NCBI RefSeq assembly: GCF_055900595.2
Contig: NZ_CM148325.1
Strand: one strand, 5' to 3'
Length of the DNA: 64,000 bases
Below, in pieces: positions 7,696 through 56,499 of the stretch (position 1 is its first letter; every line of letters begins with the position of its first letter). Under the pieces are notes generated by a model. The model saw nothing but the letters and a program-made list of their open reading frames with translations. It had not been told where the DNA came from and searched no databases. The position numbers and the translations under genes are program-made.

Positions 7696-7724
7696 AAAAA
7701 AAACCCGCTGATTAAGCGGGTTTT
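7696..7724. terminator. Bidirectional rho-independent terminator between convergent crcB and cspE
   Basis: aaaaaaacccgctgattaagcgggtttt hairpin with flanking A-run and T-run. Confidence 0.75.
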
Positions 7725-26013: not shown

Positions 26014-26220
26014 AAGGTAATTCATGGGTGGTTGAAATACATTCTTGCTTTTCAACCATTCTAAAAACGCATGAATTGCTTCTTCCCCTCCTGACAACTG
26101 TGTTACTTTAGAAAAACTTAATCCAGAGTTAAGTAATAAAACATAACAAATATAAATAAAACAGTAGAATCATTGATTACAAGAATGATTTATGGAAAAG
26201 ATAATATAACGGAGTATGTT

Positions 26221-27123
26221 ATGGCTAATCTTTATGATTTAAAAAAATTCGACCTCAATTTACTGGTCATATTTGAGTGCATTTATCAACACCTCAGCAT
26301 TAGCAAAGCAGCAGAATCATTATATATAACGCCATCTGCCGTTAGTCAGTCGTTACAACGTTTACGCGCGCAATTTAATGACCCGTTATTCATCCGCTCA
26401 GGGAAAGGTATCGCGCCGACTACAACAGGGTTAAATCTGCATCACCATCTTGAGAAAAATCTCCGAGGCCTTGAACAAACGATCAATATCGTTAATAAGT
26501 CTGAGCTGAAGAAAAATTTTATTATCTACGGTCCTCAGCTTATTTCTTGTAGTAATAACAACATGCTAATCCGCTGTCTAAGACAAGATACTTCAATCGA
26601 TATAGAATGCCATGACATACTGCTTTCAGCTGAAAACGCTGAAGAATTGTTAGTTCAACGCAAAGCTGACCTGGCAATTACACTGCAACCAGTAATTAGC
26701 CGCTCTGTCATCTGCATGCCGGTACATACTATTCGCAATTCTCTTATATGTAGCAACAAACATCCTCGTATTACCGATACCAGTAACTATGAACAAATTA
26801 TCGCCGAAGAATTCACCTTGTTGATATCTAAATCAGCAGGGATTGACGAAATTCAAATGGACATAGATGAACGTTTTATGAACCGTAAAGTTTCATTTCG
26901 CAGTTCTTCTTTGTTGACGATAATTAATAGTATTTCTGTTACTGACTTATTGGGCATTGTGCCCACCGAACTGTACGATTTACATCGTGATTTTTTGAAG
27001 TTACAAGAGATAAAACTGGAACGACCACTTCCTACGGTTAAACTTTATATTTCCTATAACAAGGCTTCGTTGAACAACCTTGTCTTCTCACGATTCATAG
27101 ATCGTTTAAATGATAGCTTCTGA
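26221..27123 (+). CDS. ybdO: LysR-family transcriptional regulator YbdO
   Basis: Start taken at MANLYDLKKFDLNLL... (300 aa, GGAG RBS); N-terminal HTH; strongly AT-rich coding sequence. Confidence 0.85.
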   Translation: MANLYDLKKFDLNLLVIFECIYQHLSISKAAESLYITPSAVSQSLQRLRAQFNDPLFIRSGKGIAPTTTGLNLHHHLEKNLRGLEQTINIVNKSELKKNFIIYGPQLISCSNNNMLIRCLRQDTSIDIECHDILLSAENAEELLVQRKADLAITLQPVISRSVICMPVHTIRNSLICSNKHPRITDTSNYEQIIAEEFTLLISKSAGIDEIQMDIDERFMNRKVSFRSSSLLTIINSISVTDLLGIVPTELYDLHRDFLKLQEIKLERPLPTVKLYISYNKASLNNLVFSRFIDRLNDSF

Positions 27124-27269
27124 TTTATTACCACGGATAAATGTTATATTACGCATCAATTGATTCATTGTGTGAATATAAAATAATGTGCTCTATCTTG
27201 CTTCGTTTACCCTATAATTAGCGGATTCATCTCACAAGTCACCCAGTAACGTTCAGAGAGCGTTTTCAG

Positions 27270-28490
27270 ATGTCTATTTATAAAATCCCTCTTCCGCTGA
27301 ATATTTTAGAAGCTGCACAGGAACGTATTACCTGGACACTTAACACATTGCCCCGTGTTTGCGTTTCTTTTTCGAGGGGTAAAGATTCCGGATTAATGCT
27401 GCATCTTACCGCCGAACTTGCCAGAAAATTGGGAAAAAAAATCTGCGTTTTGTTTATCGACTGGGAAGCACAGTTCTCTTGTACCATCGACTATGTACAG
27501 TCGTTACGCGAGTTGTATACCGACGTTATTGAAGAGTTTTACTGGGTAGCACTCCCACTCAAGACGCAAAATTCCCTTTCACAATACCAACCAGAATGGC
27601 AGTGCTGGGAATCTGATGTCGAATGGGTGCGTCAGCCCCCGCAAGAAGCGATAACCGATCCTGACTTTTTCTCCTTTTACCAGCCAGGCATGACCTTCGA
27701 ACAATTTGTACGTGAGTTTGCCGAATGGTTTTCACAAAAACGTCCGGCGGCGATGATGATCGGCATCCGTGCGGATGAGTCCTACAACCGTTTTGTCGCC
27801 ATCGCCAGTTTAAGTAAACAACGTTTTGCCGATGATAAGCCCTGGACCACAGCCGCACCAGGCGGTCACAGCTGGTACATTTACCCCATCTACGACTGGA
27901 AAGTAGCTGATATCTGGACCTGGTATGCTAATCATAAATCCCTATGTAACCCATTGTATAATATCATGTATCAGGCAGGCGTTCCCCTGCGTCATATGCG
28001 AATTTGCGAACCTTTTGGCCCGGAGCAACGGCAAGGATTATGGCTCTATCACGTTATCGAACCGGATCGCTGGGCTGCTATGTGCGCACGAGTTAGCGGG
28101 GTAAAAAGTGGCGGCATTTACGCCGGACATGACAATCATTTTTATGGTCATCGGAAAATCCTCAAACCAGAGCATTTAGACTGGCAAGAGTATGCATTAT
28201 TGCTGCTTGATAGCATGCCGGAGAAAACGGCTGAGCATTACCGCAACAAAATTGCCATTTACTTGCATTGGTATCAGAAAAAAGGTGTCGAGGTGCCACA
28301 GACCCAGCACGGGGACATTGGCGCGAAAGATATCCCCTCCTGGCGGCGAATTTGCAAGGTGTTACTGAATAACGATTACTGGTGTCGGGCATTATCATTT
28401 AGCCCAACCAAAGCGAAGAATTATCAGCGTTATAACGAACGGATAAAAGTAAAACGTCAGGAGTGGGGAATACTATGCAACAACAATTAA
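27270..28490 (+). CDS. ybdN: PAPS-reductase-like / PP-loop ATP-pyrophosphatase superfamily protein YbdN (function unknown)
   Basis: 406-aa ORF; N-terminal PP-loop-like motif VSFSRGKDSG; recognised as YbdN. Confidence 0.88.
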   Translation: MSIYKIPLPLNILEAAQERITWTLNTLPRVCVSFSRGKDSGLMLHLTAELARKLGKKICVLFIDWEAQFSCTIDYVQSLRELYTDVIEEFYWVALPLKTQNSLSQYQPEWQCWESDVEWVRQPPQEAITDPDFFSFYQPGMTFEQFVREFAEWFSQKRPAAMMIGIRADESYNRFVAIASLSKQRFADDKPWTTAAPGGHSWYIYPIYDWKVADIWTWYANHKSLCNPLYNIMYQAGVPLRHMRICEPFGPEQRQGLWLYHVIEPDRWAAMCARVSGVKSGGIYAGHDNHFYGHRKILKPEHLDWQEYALLLLDSMPEKTAEHYRNKIAIYLHWYQKKGVEVPQTQHGDIGAKDIPSWRRICKVLLNNDYWCRALSFSPTKAKNYQRYNERIKVKRQEWGILCNNN

Positions 28491-29092
28491 CGCAGGATTT
28501 AACCCAATTTCTCGCCAGCTTGCCGGAAGACGATCGCATCAAAGCGATTAACGAAATCCGCCTGGCGATCCATCAGGTTAGCCCCTTTCGTGAAGAGCCA
28601 GTAGATTGTGTTCTGTGGGTTAAAAACAGCCAACTTATGCCAAATGATTACAACCCAAACAATGTGGCACCGCCCGAGAAAAAACTGTTACAAAAATCCA
28701 TTGAGATAGATGGTTTTACCCAACCTATTGTGGTCACGCACACAGATAAAAATGCTCTGGAAATCGTGGATGGCTTTCACCGTCATGAAATTGGTAAAGG
28801 CTCTAACACGTTAAAAATGCGATTAAAAGGATATTTACCGGTCACCTGTCTGGAAGGAACACGTAACGAACGCATCGCCGCGACTATTCGTCATAACCGC
28901 GCTCGTGGACGCCACCAAATTACAGCCATGTCAGAAATCGTTCGTGAACTCAGCCAGTTAGGATGGGACGACAATAAAATCGGCAAAGAGCTGGGTATGG
29001 ACAGCGACGAAGTGTTGCGCCTGAAACAAATTAACGGCCTGCAAGAGTTATTTGCTGACCGTCAATATTCCCGCGCCTGGACAGTAAAATAA
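28463..29092 (+). CDS. ybdM: ParB/sulfiredoxin-fold (ParB-like nuclease domain) protein YbdM (function unknown)
   Basis: 209-aa ORF from GTG 28463, overlapping ybdN by 28 nt (alternative ATG at 28475); DGFHRH motif resembling the GxHR signature of ParB/Srx/DndB-like proteins. Confidence 0.82.
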   Translation: MGNTMQQQLTQDLTQFLASLPEDDRIKAINEIRLAIHQVSPFREEPVDCVLWVKNSQLMPNDYNPNNVAPPEKKLLQKSIEIDGFTQPIVVTHTDKNALEIVDGFHRHEIGKGSNTLKMRLKGYLPVTCLEGTRNERIAATIRHNRARGRHQITAMSEIVRELSQLGWDDNKIGKELGMDSDEVLRLKQINGLQELFADRQYSRAWTVK

Positions 29093-30253
29093 TTACAGCT
29101 GGCGCAGGCGTTCAGCTGCCGCCAGCAACGTCGATTCCTTCTTGGCAAAACAGAGACGAATGAGCTTATGGGGGAAGGGATCGGCGCAAAATACCGACAG
29201 CGGGATCGCCGCCACGCCATGCTCCCGCGTCAGCCACTGGCAAAACTCAACGTCATCCAGCGAAGAAACCGCGCTGTAATCCACCAGCAAAAAGTAAGTG
29301 CCTTCGCACGGTAAAATCTCCAGCCGACTCTCACTTAAGGCGTTCACCAGAATATCGCGCTTCTGGCGATAAAAGTCCGGTAACGCAAGGTAGTGTTCAG
29401 GTTCTGCTCGCAGCATATCGGCAAGGGCCAGCTGCGCCGGGGTATTCACCGAAAAAGTCAGATACTGATGCACTTTGCGGATCTCGGCGCTGATGGGCGC
29501 AGGCGCAACGCAATAGCCCACTTTCCAGCCGGTCATATGATAGGTCTTGCCAAACGATGACACCGCCACCGCCCGCTCACGCAGTTGCGGATGCGCCAGC
29601 ACACTGGCATGGCCCTGCTGTGAAAAGTTGATATGCTCGTAAACTTCATCGCTAATGACAAAAATCTCGTGCCCGGCAATTGCCTGCCACAAAGCGGAAA
29701 AATCAGTCTGCTGCCAGACAGTAGCACTGGGGTTATGCGGGGTGTTAAGGATCACCAGTCGGGTGCGCTCGCTTAACAATGCGGCAAATTCCTGCCAGTC
29801 CACGCGAAAATGCGGTGGTTGCAGTGCAATACGTTTCACTATTCCACCCGCAAGCGTGATGGCGGGGGCGTAACTGTCATAGCTGGGATCAAAGCAAATC
29901 ACTTCATCGCCATTGCGCACCAATGCAGTAATCGCTGCGTACAGCGCTTCCGTCGCCCCTGCTGTTACGGTGATATCGCTGTCGGCATCTGGTTGATAGC
30001 CATACAGCCGTTCCGTTTTCTGAACAATCGCCTCGCGCAAGGCCTGCACGCCGGTCATGGGTGCGTATTGGTTTGCTCCGTGGGCAACGTGGTACGCCAG
30101 CCGTTCCTGCAAATAGCGCGGACCATCAAAATCAGGAAAGCCTTGCGACAGGTTAATCGCCTGGTGTTGCTGCGCCAGTGCGCTCATCTGGGTGAAAATA
30201 GTGGTGCCAAGTTGTGGAAGTTTGCTTTGTGGAATCAGAGGGTTATTTGTCAT
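29093..30253 (-). CDS. ybdL: Methionine aminotransferase (PLP-dependent)
   Basis: ORF trimmed to MTNNPLIPQSKLPQLG... (386 aa); PLP-lysine context SFGKTY. Confidence 0.92.
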   Translation of the reverse strand: MTNNPLIPQSKLPQLGTTIFTQMSALAQQHQAINLSQGFPDFDGPRYLQERLAYHVAHGANQYAPMTGVQALREAIVQKTERLYGYQPDADSDITVTAGATEALYAAITALVRNGDEVICFDPSYDSYAPAITLAGGIVKRIALQPPHFRVDWQEFAALLSERTRLVILNTPHNPSATVWQQTDFSALWQAIAGHEIFVISDEVYEHINFSQQGHASVLAHPQLRERAVAVSSFGKTYHMTGWKVGYCVAPAPISAEIRKVHQYLTFSVNTPAQLALADMLRAEPEHYLALPDFYRQKRDILVNALSESRLEILPCEGTYFLLVDYSAVSSLDDVEFCQWLTREHGVAAIPLSVFCADPFPHKLIRLCFAKKESTLLAAAERLRQL

Positions 30254-30361
30254 TTTTATTGTGCCTGACAAAGTTGCGTGTTGAAGCCACTATAACACGA
30301 TGCTAGTATTTGGCAATCAAGACGTTTAGATGTCTAAATAAAACAATAAGGACAACACAAC

Positions 30362-31450
30362 ATGCCTCACAATCCTATCCGCGTCGTCGTTGGCCCTGCT
30401 AACTACTTTTCTCATCCCGGCAGTCTCAATCACCTGCATGATTTTTTCACTGATGAACAACTTTCTCGCGCAGTGTGGATCTACGGTGAACGTGCACTTG
30501 CCGCGGCGCAAACCAAACTTCCATCGGCGTTTGAACTGCCAGGAGCAAAGCATATTTTGTTTCGCGGTCATTGCAGTGAAAGCAATGTGCAACAACTGGC
30601 GGCTGAGTCCGGTGACGATCGCAGCGTGGTGATTGGCGTCGGCGGCGGCGCACTGCTCGACACCGCGAAAGCCCTCGCCCGCCGTCTCGGTCTGCCGTTT
30701 GTTGCCGTTCCAACGATTGCCGCTACCTGCGCTGCCTGGACACCACTCTCTGTCTGGTACAACGATGCCGGACAGGCGCTACATTATGAGATTTTTGACG
30801 ACGCCAATTTTATGGTGCTGGTGGAACCGGAGATAATCCTCAATGCGCCGCAAGAATATCTGCTGGCAGGAATCGGTGACACGCTGGCGAAATGGTATGA
30901 AGCGGTGGTGCTGGCTCCTCAGCCAGAAACGCTGCCGCTAACCGTGCGGCTGGGAATCAATAATGCGCAGGTCATTCGCGACGCCTTGTTAAACAGTAGC
31001 GAACAGGCGCTTGCCGATCAGCAAAATCAGCAGTTAACGCAATCATTTTGCGATGTGGTCGATGCGATTATCGCCGGAGGCGGAATGGTCGGTGGTCTGG
31101 GCGATCGTTTTACGCGTGTGGCGGCGGCCCATGCCGTGCATAACGGTCTGACCGTTTTGCCGCAAACCGAGAAGTTTCTCCACGGCACCAAAGTCGCCTA
31201 CGGAATTCTGGTGCAAAGCGCCTTGCTGGGTCAGGATGATGTGCTGGCGCAATTAACCGGGGCGCATCAGCGTTTTCATCTGCCGACCACGCTGGCGGAG
31301 CTGGAAGTGGATATCAATAATCAGGCAGAGATCGACAAAGTGATTGCGCACACCTTGCGTCCGGCGGAATCCATTCATTACCTGCCGGTCACGCTGACAC
31401 CAGATACGTTGCGTGCAGCGTTCGAAAAAGTGGAATCGTTTAAAGTCTGA
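30362..31450 (+). CDS. ybdH: Hydroxycarboxylate dehydrogenase (iron-containing alcohol dehydrogenase family)
   Basis: 362-aa ORF MPHNPIRVVVGPANYFSHPGSL... matches YbdH; GGGxxxD NAD motif. Confidence 0.9.
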   Translation: MPHNPIRVVVGPANYFSHPGSLNHLHDFFTDEQLSRAVWIYGERALAAAQTKLPSAFELPGAKHILFRGHCSESNVQQLAAESGDDRSVVIGVGGGALLDTAKALARRLGLPFVAVPTIAATCAAWTPLSVWYNDAGQALHYEIFDDANFMVLVEPEIILNAPQEYLLAGIGDTLAKWYEAVVLAPQPETLPLTVRLGINNAQVIRDALLNSSEQALADQQNQQLTQSFCDVVDAIIAGGGMVGGLGDRFTRVAAAHAVHNGLTVLPQTEKFLHGTKVAYGILVQSALLGQDDVLAQLTGAHQRFHLPTTLAELEVDINNQAEIDKVIAHTLRPAESIHYLPVTLTPDTLRAAFEKVESFKV

Positions 31451-31459
31451 CGTACAGAT

Positions 31460-31657
31460 TTAGCAGCAGCGCGCGCCACCTTTTCCACCGTAGCGCGCGT
31501 CCTGCCGCTCACGGAAAAACTCCTCGTAGGTCATCGGCGTTTGATCGGGATGGTTAACCCGCATATGTTCGACATAGTTGTCGTAATCGGGCATACCAAT
31601 CATCAGCTTCGCTGCCTGACCTAAATATTTTCCGGCTTTTGCCAGTGAATCAAACAT
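31460..31657 (-). CDS. ybdD: Small DUF466-family protein YbdD, encoded with cstA
   Basis: 65-aa [33 protein letters not shown]...; GGAGG 5 nt upstream of the ATG. Confidence 0.85.
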
Positions 31658-31721
31658 CAATACCTCCGGTAATCAGATTGCTGAGAGAGTGCATTAATAG
31701 CTATCAACGCGCTCGGTCAGT

Positions 31722-31793
31722 CCCCTCGCCCCACCGGGGAGAGGGTTAGGGTGAGGGGGAACCCTAGGCACTACGCCAACATCCCCCTCACTC
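31722..31793. repeat. GC-rich imperfect-palindromic intergenic element between cstA and ybdD
   Basis: cccctcgccccaccggggagagggttagggtgaggggg...ccccctcactc: repeated CCCCTC/GAGGGG units able to form alternative hairpins. Confidence 0.55.
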
Positions 31794-31798
31794 TGACT

Positions 31799-33904
31799 TT
31801 AGTGCGCGCCTTTCGCCTGCGCCACGATCTCCTCGACATTTTCCGGCATTGGCTCATACGGCGTTTCTTTCGCCGTTGGCTTCGGCTCTTTCAATGCCGC
31901 CAGTGCCGTCTTAATCGAGAACAGCGCCAGAACCACCACGACCACCATAAAGAAGATGGTTAACCCGGCATCCAGACGGTTGTTGAACACCAGTTGCGCC
32001 AGTTGTGACTCAGTATACTGCGACGGAATATTGCCGCTGTCGATCATTGCCTGGAACTTGTTAGCAATCGCCAGGAAACCGACTTTCGCATCCGGGCTAA
32101 ACGCTTTCTGCCAGCCTGCGGTCAGGGTACAAATCAGCAGCCAGGCCGTTGGTACCAGCGCCACCCAGGCGTAACGTTGACGTTTCATTTTGAACAACAC
32201 CACGGCACAGAGCATCAGCGCCATCCCTGCCAGCATCTGGTTGGCAATACCAAACAGCGGCCACAGAGTGTTAATACCGCCCAGCGGATCGACCACGCCC
32301 TGATGCAGGAAGTAGCCCCACGCCAGCACGCACAGCGCCGTTGCCAGCAGGTTAGCAGGCAGTGAATCGGTCCGTTTCAGACCCGGAGAAACCACGCCCA
32401 GCAGATCCTGCAACATAAAGCGCGCAGCACGCGTACCTGCATCCACCGCCGTCAGAATAAACAGTGCTTCAAACAGAATGGCGAAGTGATACCAGAACGC
32501 CACATCCATCATGCCGCCCAGCGCACCGTGCAGAATGTAGGCCATCCCCACCGCCAGCGTCGGCGCACCGCCCGCACGGGAAATGATCGACTGTTCACCC
32601 ACTTCGCTGGCAATCTGATTTAACGTATCTGGCGTAATGCTAAAGCCCCAGCTACTCACTACCTGCGCAGCAGATGCCACTACATCCGCCGTCCCCGCCG
32701 GAGCCAGCACCGCCATCGGGCTGTTCATCGCGAAGTACACGCCCGGATCGATGATACAGGCAGAAACCAGTGCCATAATCGCCACGAAGGATTCCATCAA
32801 CATCCCGCCGTAGCCGATAAAGCACGCCTGACCTTCGTTCGCCAGCATCTTCGGTGTGGTGCCGGAAGAGATCAGCGCATGGAAGCCAGACACCGCGCCA
32901 CAGGCGATAGTAATAAACAGGAACGGGAACAGATTACCGGTCCATACCGGGCCAGTGCCATCTACAAACTTGGTCAGCGCAGGCATGGTCAGCGTCGGAC
33001 GCATAATCAAAATGCCTACCGCCAGACCGACGATAGTCCCGATTTTCAGGAAGGTAGAGAGGTAGTCACGCGGAGCCAGCAGCAACCACACCGGCAGAAC
33101 CGCCGCCACAAAACCGTAACCCACCAGCATCCAGGTCAGCTGCACGCCGGTAAAGTCAAAGTACGGTGCCCAGGTCGGGCTTTCTGCCACCCAGCCGCCA
33201 GAGATAATGGCGAAAATAAGGAATACCAGGCCAATCACCGACACTTCCCCAATGCGGCCTGGACGCAGATAGCGCAGGTAAATCCCCATGAACAGCGCCA
33301 GCGGAATGGTGAACGCAACGGTATACGTTCCCCACGGGCTATGAGTCAGGGCTTTCACCACGATCATCGCCAGTACTGCAAGAATAATGACCATGATCAT
33401 AAAGCAGGCCACCAGCGCAATCACCCCGGCGGTTGGCCCCATCTCTTCTTTAACCAGCTCGCCCAGCGAGCGACCGTCACGGCGCGTGGAAACAAACAGC
33501 ACCATAAAATCCTGCACCGCACCGGCGAGAACCACCCCGGCAAGTAGCCAGATCATCCCCGGTAGGTAGCCCATTTGCGCCGCCAGTACCGGCCCCACCA
33601 ACGGGCCTGCTCCGGCAATGGCCGCAAAATGGTGACCGAACAGCACTTTCTTGTCCGTCGGCACATAGTCCAGCCCGTCGTTATGGCGCACCGCTGGCGT
33701 CATACGCGTCGGGTCAACCGCCAATACATTTTTGGCAATATAAAGACCATAAAAACGGTAAGCGATCAGATAGATACAGACCGACGCTACCACAATCCAC
33801 AGCGCGTTGATCTGTTCCCCACGATTTAAAGCAATGTATCCCAGAGCAAATGCTCCCATTACAGAGAGCACTGTCCAGACGAGGTATTTCCCTGATTTGT
33901 TCAT
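31799..33904 (-). CDS. cstA: Carbon starvation protein A (pyruvate/peptide transporter family)
   Basis: 701-aa polytopic membrane ORF matching CstA. Confidence 0.94.
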   Translation of the reverse strand: MNKSGKYLVWTVLSVMGAFALGYIALNRGEQINALWIVVASVCIYLIAYRFYGLYIAKNVLAVDPTRMTPAVRHNDGLDYVPTDKKVLFGHHFAAIAGAGPLVGPVLAAQMGYLPGMIWLLAGVVLAGAVQDFMVLFVSTRRDGRSLGELVKEEMGPTAGVIALVACFMIMVIILAVLAMIVVKALTHSPWGTYTVAFTIPLALFMGIYLRYLRPGRIGEVSVIGLVFLIFAIISGGWVAESPTWAPYFDFTGVQLTWMLVGYGFVAAVLPVWLLLAPRDYLSTFLKIGTIVGLAVGILIMRPTLTMPALTKFVDGTGPVWTGNLFPFLFITIACGAVSGFHALISSGTTPKMLANEGQACFIGYGGMLMESFVAIMALVSACIIDPGVYFAMNSPMAVLAPAGTADVVASAAQVVSSWGFSITPDTLNQIASEVGEQSIISRAGGAPTLAVGMAYILHGALGGMMDVAFWYHFAILFEALFILTAVDAGTRAARFMLQDLLGVVSPGLKRTDSLPANLLATALCVLAWGYFLHQGVVDPLGGINTLWPLFGIANQMLAGMALMLCAVVLFKMKRQRYAWVALVPTAWLLICTLTAGWQKAFSPDAKVGFLAIANKFQAMIDSGNIPSQYTESQLAQLVFNNRLDAGLTIFFMVVVVVLALFSIKTALAALKEPKPTAKETPYEPMPENVEEIVAQAKGAH

Positions 33905-53523: not shown

Positions 53524-54153
53524 ATGGTCGACATGAAAACTACGCATACCTCCCTCCCCTTTGCAGGACATACGCTGCATTTTGTTGAGTTCGATCCAGT
53601 GAGTTTTCGCGAGCAGGATTTACTCTGGCTGCCACACTACGCACAACTGCAACACGCTGGACGTAAACGTAAAACAGAGCATTTAGCCGGACGGATCGCT
53701 GCTGTTTACGCCTTGCGGGAATATGGCTATAAATGTGTGCCCGCAATCGGCGAGCTACGCCAACCTGTGTGGCCTGCGGAGGTATACGGCAGTATTAGCC
53801 ACTGCGGGACTACGGCATTAGCCGTGGTATCTCGTCAACCGATTGGCATTGATATCGAAGAGATTTTCTCTGTACAAACCGCAAGAGAATTGACAGACAA
53901 CATTATTACACCAGCAGAACACGAGCGACTCGCAGAATGCGGTTTAACCTTTTCTCTGGCGCTGACACTGGCATTTTCCGCCAAAGAGAGCGCATTTAAG
54001 GCAAGCAAGATACAGGCCGCTCAAGGTTTTCTGGATTATCAGATAATTAGCTGGAATAAACAGCAGATCATCATTCGACTAGAGGATGAGCAGTTTGCTG
54101 TGCACTGGCAGATAAAAGAAAAAATAGTCATAACGCTGTGCCAACACGATTAA
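53524..54153 (+). CDS. entD: 4'-phosphopantetheinyl transferase for EntB/EntF
   Basis: Trimmed to MVDMKTTHTSLPFAGHTLHF... (209 aa); the supplied ORF extends upstream across the REP. Confidence 0.9.
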   Translation: MVDMKTTHTSLPFAGHTLHFVEFDPVSFREQDLLWLPHYAQLQHAGRKRKTEHLAGRIAAVYALREYGYKCVPAIGELRQPVWPAEVYGSISHCGTTALAVVSRQPIGIDIEEIFSVQTARELTDNIITPAEHERLAECGLTFSLALTLAFSAKESAFKASKIQAAQGFLDYQIISWNKQQIIIRLEDEQFAVHWQIKEKIVITLCQHD

Positions 54154-54274
54154 TTGACAACATCTGGTACGATTCGCCCGCAGCCATCACTGACCACGGG
54201 CGAAAGTGTAAAGCAGGTGCCTTACCATCCTGACCTGACAACCGGATATGCGGGGATTGCTCCCCGCACAACGG

Positions 54275-54427
54275 CTACTTCTTCGGTTCGTAAGCGAGAA
54301 CAGCCTTAAACTCAATATTACGTTCCTTTACGGTAAACTCACACAGCGAGTCGCCGACCAGAAGCGTAAATCCCAGCACTGTCAAACATAGCACTATGAC
54401 CGCCACAAGGGCATATTTCGTCAGCAT
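54275..54427 (-). CDS. hokE: Hok/Gef-family type I toxin (50 aa), copy 1
   Basis: [50 protein letters not shown]: single TM helix, conserved Hok C-terminus; the in-frame upstream extension (to 54571) is treated as leader, not Hok. Confidence 0.88.
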
Positions 54428-54776
54428 GTTTATATTGCCTCCATGCGAAGAAGGGACTACCATCCAAATTGTCTGGTTTGGAGTGGCGGCCCCAGGGTTG
54501 ATAGAAATATCTCCTGGGGCTTCATCTTTCCAGACCTCAGAGTAAACCTGAAACCGGAAAGCTTCAGGCACCCGCCGTTATCTTACCCTTCCTTAGCAAA
54601 ATAGCTGTTTATTTATACAGTAAATCCTGTTCCGGACTTTTCATTGGTATTATCGCCCATGCCAGTTAAACGAAATCGCCCGCAGCCATTGCTGACCGCG
54701 GGCGAAAATGTAAAGCAGGTGCCTTACCATCCTGACCTGACAACCGGATATGCGGGGATTACTCCCCGCACAGCGG

Positions 54777-54929
54777 CTACTTCTTCGGTTCGTAAGCGAG
54801 AACAGCCTTAAACTCAATATTACGTTCCTTCACCGTAAACTCACACAGCGAGTCTCCGACCAGAAGCGTAAATCCCAGCACCGTCAAACACTGCACTATG
54901 ACTGCCACAAGGGCATATTTCGTCAGCAT
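54777..54929 (-). CDS. Hok/Gef-family type I toxin (50 aa), copy 2 (paralogue from the tandem duplication)
   Basis: [50 protein letters not shown]: differs from copy 1 by L13Q plus synonymous changes. Confidence 0.85.
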
Positions 54930-55371
54930 GTTTATATTGCCTCCATGCGAAGAAGGGACTACCATCCAAATTGTTCGGGTTTGGAGTGGCAGCCCCAGGG
55001 TTGATAGAAATATCTCCTGGGGCTTCATCTTTCCAGACCTCAGAGTAAACCTGAAACCGGAAAGCTTCAGGCACCCGCAGTCATCTTACCCTTCCTTAGC
55101 AAAATAGCTGTTTATTTATACAGTTGGTCTTATTTCGGACTTCTCACTACGCATTAGATCAACCGAAACTAAGCCAGTTTTTCCTTCGCCCCTCAATCAT
55201 CAAAATTCTCCGCCGCCAGCCAGCTCTGCCATAACTTGGCACATTGCAAAAGTAGCCAAACTTCTTCAGTCACAATCAGTTCACCATCACCAAAAAAAAG
55301 AAACATTCCAGAACTTCCGCATCTCCCCCGGCCGCTCCCACTTCTATACTGAAATGAAAACGCCAACATAA

Positions 55372-56499
<1,128 letters not shown>

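Follow-up and report, generated by a model that had tools for sequence, protein, structure and literature searches.

The stop-to-stop junction of the convergent genes ybdM and ybdL: a compacted, old and ordinary gene end of Enterobacteriaceae

Several described arrangements of convergent genes may be set beside the one analysed here. In convergent excludons, neighbours on opposite strands have transcripts which overlap at their 3' ends, the hallmark of the arrangement being mutually exclusive expression; the catalogue produced with ExcludonFinder (NAR 2025, PMC12288877) comprises 165 convergent excludons of E. coli MG1655, among them ybdL-ybdM (present in at least 50% of 58 RNA-seq samples), entS-fepB and ybdD-hcxA, and the transcript overlap of ybdL and ybdM is therefore already on record for K-12. 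The mean intergenic size of the E. coli excludons is 95 nt, and in 146 of the 165 convergent ones TransTermHP terminators lie inside the neighbour's transcription unit (PMC12288877). In a second arrangement, transcription running antisense into the opposite gene is ended by Rho, as at the cstA-ybdD/hcxA junction of K-12, where bicyclomycin data place a Rho region antisense to ybdH (that is, hcxA) at 632836(+), with p = 1.3e-17 (PMC7815308, suppl. 2). Canonical bidirectional intrinsic terminators, finally, occupy the spacer between two convergent genes and combine a stem (z of -4 to -5) with an uninterrupted U-run and often with an A-run upstream.

The junction which is the focus of the present analysis lies within a stretch of 64,000 nucleotides, referred to below as the window. 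On its + strand, ybdN (27270..28490; open reading frame and RefSeq annotation), encoding a PAPS-reductase-like protein, is the first gene of ybdNM, an operon repressed by CitR (PMC9068703); it is followed by ybdM (28463..29092), encoding an IbrB-like, ParB-like domain protein, whose GTG start overlaps ybdN by 28 nt according to the open-reading-frame coordinates and whose stop codon, TAA, occupies 29090-29092. The - strand carries ybdL (29093..30253), encoding a methionine-oxo-acid transaminase of 386 residues, which is supported by the open reading frame, the RefSeq annotation and a check of the translation, and whose TAA stop reads as TTA on the + strand at 29093-29095. The two genes are thus tail-to-tail neighbours on opposite strands, and their stops form a palindromic hexamer, TAATTA (29090..29095, both strands), with no intergenic base; the same coordinates are found in the RefSeq annotation of a genome which is 100% identical over window positions 28400-29800, where ybdM ends one base before ybdL begins. 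The original prediction that the two stop codons are adjacent on opposite strands is therefore correct, and its statement that no terminator lies between the genes holds trivially, there being no space for one; a consensus scan likewise gave no site at the junction. Because there is no spacer, neither gene has a downstream terminator of its own, and, with no bases in between, whatever untranslated RNA either transcript has beyond its stop codon lies antisense to the partner gene.

How ordinary such a junction is can be judged from the other convergent pairs of the window, which were taken from the RefSeq annotation of a near-identical genome, each junction sequence being verified as an exact match in the window. 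Nine pairs were confirmed in this way: pheP/ybdG (gap of 156 nt), fepE/fepC (-4 nt, a true overlap), entS/fepB (3 nt), ybdD/hcxA (9 nt), ybdL/ybdM (0 nt), ahpF/uspG (121 nt), dpiA/dcuC (40 nt), cspE/crcB (53 nt) and tatE/lipA (100 nt). The idea that a gap of zero is statistically unusual was rejected on these figures, the gap being at most 9 nt in four of the nine pairs, one of which overlaps. Strong canonical terminators occur at four of the five long-gap junctions, the consensus scan giving none in the tatE/lipA spacer, while at the short-gap junctions the scan found no canonical terminator, one of them having a marginal match of 5 bp. The ybdM/ybdL junction is, in short, one member of a common class, that of compacted convergent ends.

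The junction is also old. No indels interrupt its alignment across E. coli phylogroups, and a scan for YbdM with one genome per species, which returned 57 loci, revealed a gap of zero in 33 genomes of at least six named enterobacterial genera, namely Escherichia (E. albertii and E. whittamii included), several Citrobacter, Enterobacter, Lelliottia, Huaxiibacter, Klebsiella and Superficieibacter. The hexamer itself varies, being TAATTA in the window, TAGCTA in K-12 and K-12-like sequences and TAACTA, TAATCA, TAGTCA or TAGTTA elsewhere (ybdM ends in TAA or TAG, ybdL in TAA, TAG or TGA across the zero-gap loci), and the gap stays at zero throughout. Where ybdL is convergent, the sole exception is an insertion of 13 nt between the stops, shared by two Citrobacter loci. 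In other Citrobacter and in Trabulsiella, ybdL and hcxA have been lost, so that cstA lies some 300 nt after ybdM; this absence was considered as a possible ancestral state and rejected, since a remnant of the 3' end of ybdL remains visible and points to secondary deletions of ybdL-hcxA. On this comparison of sequences the zero gap is ancestral to this group of Enterobacteriaceae. Its maintenance across genera might be taken as a sign of selection, as it would be if the pair behaved as a functional excludon (see below), but the geometry would be sufficient to account for it: a deletion of whatever size would cost a gene its stop codon and change the C-terminus of one protein or of both. What the junction tolerates is an insertion, and this at one phosphodiester bond only; one such event, the 13-nt insertion of Citrobacter, is seen. 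The persistence of the zero gap would thus need no selective explanation.

The claim that no hairpin is present at the junction proved to be wrong. The last ~11 codons of ybdL contain a stem-loop (29098..29126) which forms on both RNAs, its arms being GCTGGCG at 29098-29104 and CGCCAGC at 29120-29126 together with inner pairs; in the ybdL-sense RNA its folding energy is -17.0 kcal/mol (z -1.7), whereas in the ybdM-sense RNA, for which one of 200 shuffles was as good, the value is -19.2 kcal/mol (z -3.1). A possible second stem, 29072-79/29105-12, can take in the two stops. The main stem ends, on the ybdL RNA, 2 nt before the stop codon. Next comes UAAUUAUUUUAC (8 U in 12 nt), which belongs to an interrupted U-rich stretch, UAAUUAUUUUACUGU (29081..29095, - strand), composed of the two stop codons together with the antisense of the final Val-Lys codons of ybdM. 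It may be asked, therefore, whether an intrinsic terminator is embedded in the two coding ends, formed by the stem of the last 11 ybdL codons and by the U stretch contributed by both stops and the final AAA/GTN codons of ybdM. Transcription of ybdL would then end a few nucleotides past its stop and the overlap of the transcripts would be reduced to about 10-15 nt, the palindrome serving as a 3' protective hairpin for the ybdM RNA. The G+C-rich stem-loop expected of an intrinsic terminator is indeed there, and the terminators reported within the neighbour's unit in most catalogued E. coli convergent excludons provide a precedent; the U-run is not. The tail which follows the stem is UGUAAUUAUUUUAC on the ybdL RNA, where the first 8 nt include only 4 U, and AACGUCGAUUCCUUC, which is poor, on the ybdM RNA. 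The consensus scan, which asks for 5 U or more in 8 nt, the run beginning no further than 2 nt from the stem, made no call on either RNA. In K-12 the U residues after the ybdL stop are fewer (5 of 12), and the canonical terminators found elsewhere in the window have uninterrupted U-runs and z values of -4.3 and -5.0. The stem and U stretch at the junction are accordingly not a canonical intrinsic terminator; nor did an Rfam search (E up to 1, positions 27000-31800) return a relevant family at the junction.

The origin of the stem was approached by synonymous resampling of the last 12 ybdL codons, according to the codon usage of each gene itself. As 16% of the resamples in the window lineage and 11% in K-12 fold at least as well as the natural sequence, the stem is largely a by-product of encoding the C-terminal peptide of YbdL, TLLAAAERLRQL, and selection at synonymous sites for a hairpin was rejected for Escherichia. 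When the final 45 nt of ybdL are ranked by folding energy against every window of that coding sequence in the 33 genomes, this end falls in the top 1-4% within Escherichia, a result favourable to an embedded terminator, but the median percentile is 0.185, values of 0.5-0.75 are found in Lelliottia, Huaxiibacter, the unclassified Enterobacteriaceae MAG UBA5654 and one of two Superficieibacter genomes (the other stands at 0.24), and the register of the stem differs between genera; a conserved terminator hairpin was rejected on account of this uneven signal. Folding far beyond the synonymous expectation (fraction at most 0.002) is confined to three Enterobacter species, E. asburiae (AEB30), E. 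soli and E. quasihormaechei, in which a hairpin in a different position lies right next to UGAUUAUUUUAC or UGACUAUUUCAC, as in AGAGCGU-N6-ACGCUCU followed by UGAUUAUUUUAC; this speaks for an embedded terminator in these species and hints that an equivalent hairpin is under selection in Enterobacter.

As regards the transcripts themselves, all of the expression evidence comes from K-12 or Salmonella, the lineage of the window being divergent. The expression of both genes is weak, with base means of 20-36 (PMC9068703) and 3-11 RPM (PMC7373196). In Table S1c of the latter study, a table whose strand column is visibly scrambled for some genes and whose counts therefore need caution, the sense/antisense values (RPM) are 11.17/1.93 in the wild type, 6.44/1.03 in rnc-14 and 5.58/1.74 in rnc-38 for ybdL, 9.41/4.03, 5.99/1.56 and 3.60/1.74, respectively, for ybdM, and 3.11/1.76, 3.53/0.94 and 3.10/1.61 for ybdN. 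Per kilobase, the antisense signal over ybdM in K-12 (4.03 RPM over 630 nt) amounts to about two thirds of the sense signal of ybdL (11.17 RPM over 1161 nt) and falls over ybdN (PMC7373196), a pattern which fits read-through from ybdL ending within several hundred nucleotides. The expectation of read-through and antisense coverage is thus borne out for K-12, where antisense reads lie over both ybdL and ybdM and the overlap is catalogued; that each transcript runs into the other gene stands both by geometry and by these published data. It should be kept in mind that, the gap being zero, the overlap required by ExcludonFinder is reached as soon as either transcript passes its stop codon.

The same figures bear on an embedded terminator, since antisense at two thirds of the ybdL sense density implies substantial read-through and argues that any intrinsic termination of ybdL is inefficient in K-12. 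The curated Term-seq list of 3' ends in K-12, furthermore, is empty on both strands from 632098 to 638796, a region where low expression limits its power (PMC7815308, suppl. 1). SMRT-Cappable-seq data contain no entry for this locus. Taking the strength of the hairpin together with its coding origin, its variability and this read-through, we regard an intrinsic terminator as the unlikely explanation of how these transcripts end.

We favour, with moderate confidence, a compacted and evolutionarily frozen junction at which both transcripts have Rho-dependent ends inside the opposite gene, with little or no regulatory consequence. Candidate Rho loading regions were sought through the C/G ratio in windows of 78 nt, a crude compositional proxy for rut sites, whose 95th percentile over the whole window is 1.73. 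On the + strand, in the ybdM read-through RNA (antisense to ybdL), a C-rich, G-poor, rut-like stretch extends over 29184..29390, from +92 to +290 nt (C/G 1.5-1.94); on the - strand, in the ybdL read-through RNA (antisense to ybdM), another one extends over 28923..29066, from +27 to +170 nt (C/G 1.4-1.79). These stretches start 27-92 nt past each stop and their maxima exceed the 95th percentile of the window; by composition, both read-through RNAs offer the untranslated, C-rich and G-poor segment of ~70-80 nt on which Rho could load. That Rho would be the terminating factor is suggested by analogy with the mapped Rho site of ybdD/hcxA, which is the next convergent junction, ~1.3 kb away, and the division found in the window, where terminators accompany long gaps (four of five) and canonical ones are lacking at short gaps, also favours the model. 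That Term-seq lists no discrete ends is what would be expected of a weakly expressed locus where Rho-dependent termination is diffuse.

According to the Rho model, each polymerase would continue past the stop codon into the opposite gene, and the RNA made there would be untranslated after release of the ribosome; within ~30-300 nt it would present a C-rich, G-poor stretch on which Rho would load, ending transcription. Exonucleases may afterwards shorten the RNA as far as the stem-loop at the junction. For ybdL, this stem-loop and the interrupted U stretch behind it may also contribute weak intrinsic termination, even though a ribosome terminating at the ybdL stop would, by its footprint, cover part of the stem, namely the 3' arm. 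The outcome would be a short sense/antisense overlap of two weakly expressed units, which in the conditions studied so far would probably affect regulation little or not at all. Some observations sit less easily with this model. The K-12 bicyclomycin data contain no Rho region labelled ybdL, ybdM or ybdN (PMC7815308, suppl. 2), which may only reflect low coverage, the coverage being probably too low; the rank of the hairpin within the Escherichia ybdL coding sequence (top 4%) and its z of -3.1 on the ybdM strand make a structural contribution possible; and the Enterobacter hairpins, as noted above, go beyond the synonymous expectation.

The two units have conditional regulators. The likely ybdL promoter, a sigma-70-like TTGCCA-16-TATAGT with a TG extension (30316-30289, - strand, 10 of 12 matches), is abutted by a tandem MetJ-box-like site, AGACATCTAAACGTCT (30320-30335, - strand), identified by sequence match; it is the only match in the 64 kb, against 0.08 expected by chance, a predicted MetJ site has been mentioned in this gene cluster (PMC11481890), and ybdL is probably controlled by MetJ. 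On the other side, deletion of citR raises ybdN by log2 5.5 and ybdM by log2 2.5, with base means of 36 and 20, respectively (PMC9068703); H-NS has been reported as a regulator of citR, which is adjacent to ybdNM. Between the two units, ybdL appears to be the conditionally stronger partner. Such an arrangement invites comparison with a functional convergent excludon, in which the read-through of the stronger gene (ybdL when repression by MetJ is lifted, ybdNM when that by CitR is lifted) would repress its partner as antisense RNA or through collisions between polymerases, so that expression would be mutually exclusive and selection would preserve the absence of a spacer. The presence of the pair in the published E. 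coli excludome agrees with this, as do the gap shared across genera and a conditional regulator on each side, and the weaker response of the distal ybdM to the citR deletion could reflect opposing transcription from ybdL.

The bulk of the indirect evidence, however, leans the other way. Double-stranded RNA captured with p19 is low over both genes (4-9.6 RPM for ybdL and 0.85-6.9 RPM for ybdM, compared with 270-602 RPM for ybdH), its hot spots lying in ybdH and ybdO and none in ybdL or ybdM, and neither mRNA rises in two RNase III mutants (PMC7373196). The text and tables of the citR-deletion study do not include ybdL (PMC9068703). In Salmonella, ybdM is co-regulated with ybdL, ybdH, ybdD and the met genes (PMC11481890), which is the opposite of exclusion, although the paper does not state the strandedness of the library, and it might be, as a guess, that ybdL read-through was counted there as ybdM; the text of the citR-deletion study is likewise silent on strandedness. 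Furthermore, zero-gap conservation would need no selection, and membership of the excludome follows from any transcript extension at a gap of zero, as explained above. The second half of the original prediction, antisense interference between ybdNM and ybdL, is consequently unsupported; regulatory interference at this junction is unproven, the indirect K-12 and Salmonella data lean against it, and a working excludon is judged improbable.

The boldest form of the regulatory idea would have the junction selected to force MetJ-controlled ybdL transcription antisense through ybdM and ybdN, coupling methionine status to the silencing of the IbrA/IbrB-like ybdNM module, with the reach of the antisense RNA tuned by the hairpin and its U stretch, for which some Enterobacter species show apparent selection. 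Were the junction regulatory, methionine salvage would be tied to the IbrAB-like ybdNM module, which is poorly understood; nothing was found in support of this, and we give the boldest form very little credence. A more practical lesson for annotation and transcriptomics concerns unstranded RNA-seq, in which read-through from ybdL will be counted as ybdM.

The place of this junction among known systems can now be defined. With the convergent excludons (PMC12288877) it has in common opposite-strand neighbours and a 3' transcript overlap, the K-12 orthologous pair being itself catalogued, but the indirect data lean against the mutually exclusive expression which is the hallmark of the class, and at a gap of 0 nt, compared with a mean of 95 nt, the overlap is geometrically forced rather than due to a long 3' UTR. 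The bidirectional intrinsic terminator of cspE/crcB (7700-7724 in the window) resembles it in that a single palindromic stem is common to both convergent transcripts; that of ybdM/ybdL, however, lies inside a coding sequence rather than in a spacer, its U stretch is interrupted and confined to one side, its z ranges from -1.7 to -3.1, and the encoded peptide accounts for it. To the Rho-dependent antisense read-through of cstA-ybdD/hcxA in K-12 (PMC7815308) it is related by a short gap lacking a canonical terminator and by an untranslated, C-rich and G-poor read-through RNA, with the differences that no bicyclomycin-sensitive region is reported within ybdL, ybdM or ybdN and that expression is much lower than that of cstA. 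The fepE/fepC pair of the same window shows the same extreme compaction of 3' ends, the 3' flank of each gene being the other gene, with the difference that those coding sequences overlap by 4 nt, whereas ybdM and ybdL share no nucleotide and abut exactly. The locus thus illustrates two groups of convergent genes in enterobacteria: those separated by a spacer with a canonical, often bidirectional, terminator, and those compacted to a few nucleotides or none, which must terminate inside their neighbour, presumably through Rho.

Among the ybdM loci collected by the YbdM scan (one genome per species), the exact 0-nt gap between ybdM and the convergent ybdL, at 29090-29095 in the window and at about locus position 3130-3142 in L007-L044 and L058, is kept in 33 genomes from at least six named genera (Escherichia, Citrobacter, Enterobacter, Lelliottia, Huaxiibacter, Klebsiella and Superficieibacter), despite the fact that both stop codons vary among them. 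Two Citrobacter loci, L015 and L018, share a 13-nt insertion separating the two stops; in other Citrobacter (L013, L014, L016, L019, L050) and in Trabulsiella (L041, L052) both ybdL and hcxA are missing. This absence is a secondary deletion, since part of the ybdL 3' end can still be recognised in L013 and L014 and, in the loci devoid of the two genes, cstA follows ybdM at a distance of about 300 nt.

In Enterobacter asburiae AEB30, E. soli and E. quasihormaechei (L023, L029, L032), the last 8 codons of ybdL contain a hairpin whose 7-8 bp stem is perfect (AGAGCGU-UUGAAC-ACGCUCU is one example); it extends to the ybdL stop, after which comes UGAUUAUUUUAC or UGACUAUUUCAC. Its stability is far above that of synonymous-codon resamples (fraction <=0.002), and in this genus it may represent a terminator built into the coding ends of both genes. 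At the opposite end of ybdL, some 35 nt before the start codon, lies a strong sigma-70-like promoter, and adjoining it is a tandem MetJ-box-like site, AGACATCTAAACGTCT, the sole such match within 64 kb (0.08 expected); the two together occupy 30289-30335 (- strand) and suggest that ybdL expression responds to methionine.

Distant YbdM relatives (40-57% identity; L045-L049, L054-L063), found in Treponema, Clostridia, Pacearchaeota MAGs, Dactylosporangium, Vibrio, Shewanella and Enterococcus, invariably adjoin a YbdN relative, a pairing which, in taxa so far apart, suggests a horizontally mobile two-gene module. L053, a 259-bp contig of an Alkalicoccobacillus assembly 95% identical to Escherichia ybdM, looks like contamination. 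The citR (ybdO) gene with its flanks (26050-27400) is AT-rich, with 31-40% GC vs 53-58% for ybdL and hcxA, ybdNM being intermediate (42-50%); the AT-richness around citR is consistent with its regulation by H-NS as reported in the literature.

The source lineage of the window is a divergent Escherichia. When 5426 complete E. coli genomes are compared with it at ybdM/ybdL (28400-29800), only 18 attain an identity of at least 99%, the remainder standing at 90-95%; hcxA-cstA (30300-32300) reaches at least 99% in 10 genomes. Near hokE (54000-56000), where the genome of the closest reference (NZ_CP098223) is interrupted by an IS421 insertion absent from the window, the best identity falls to 97-98.5%.

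Three further very short convergent junctions, all without canonical terminators, occur in the window: fepE/fepC (~44225, 4-nt overlap), entS/fepB (~40060, 3-nt gap) and hcxA/ybdD (31451-31459, 9-nt gap). In K-12, entS-fepB and ybdD-hcxA are also included in the published list of excludons, convergent pairs with overlapping transcripts (PMC12288877), and a Rho termination region has been mapped antisense to hcxA (ybdH) (PMC7815308).
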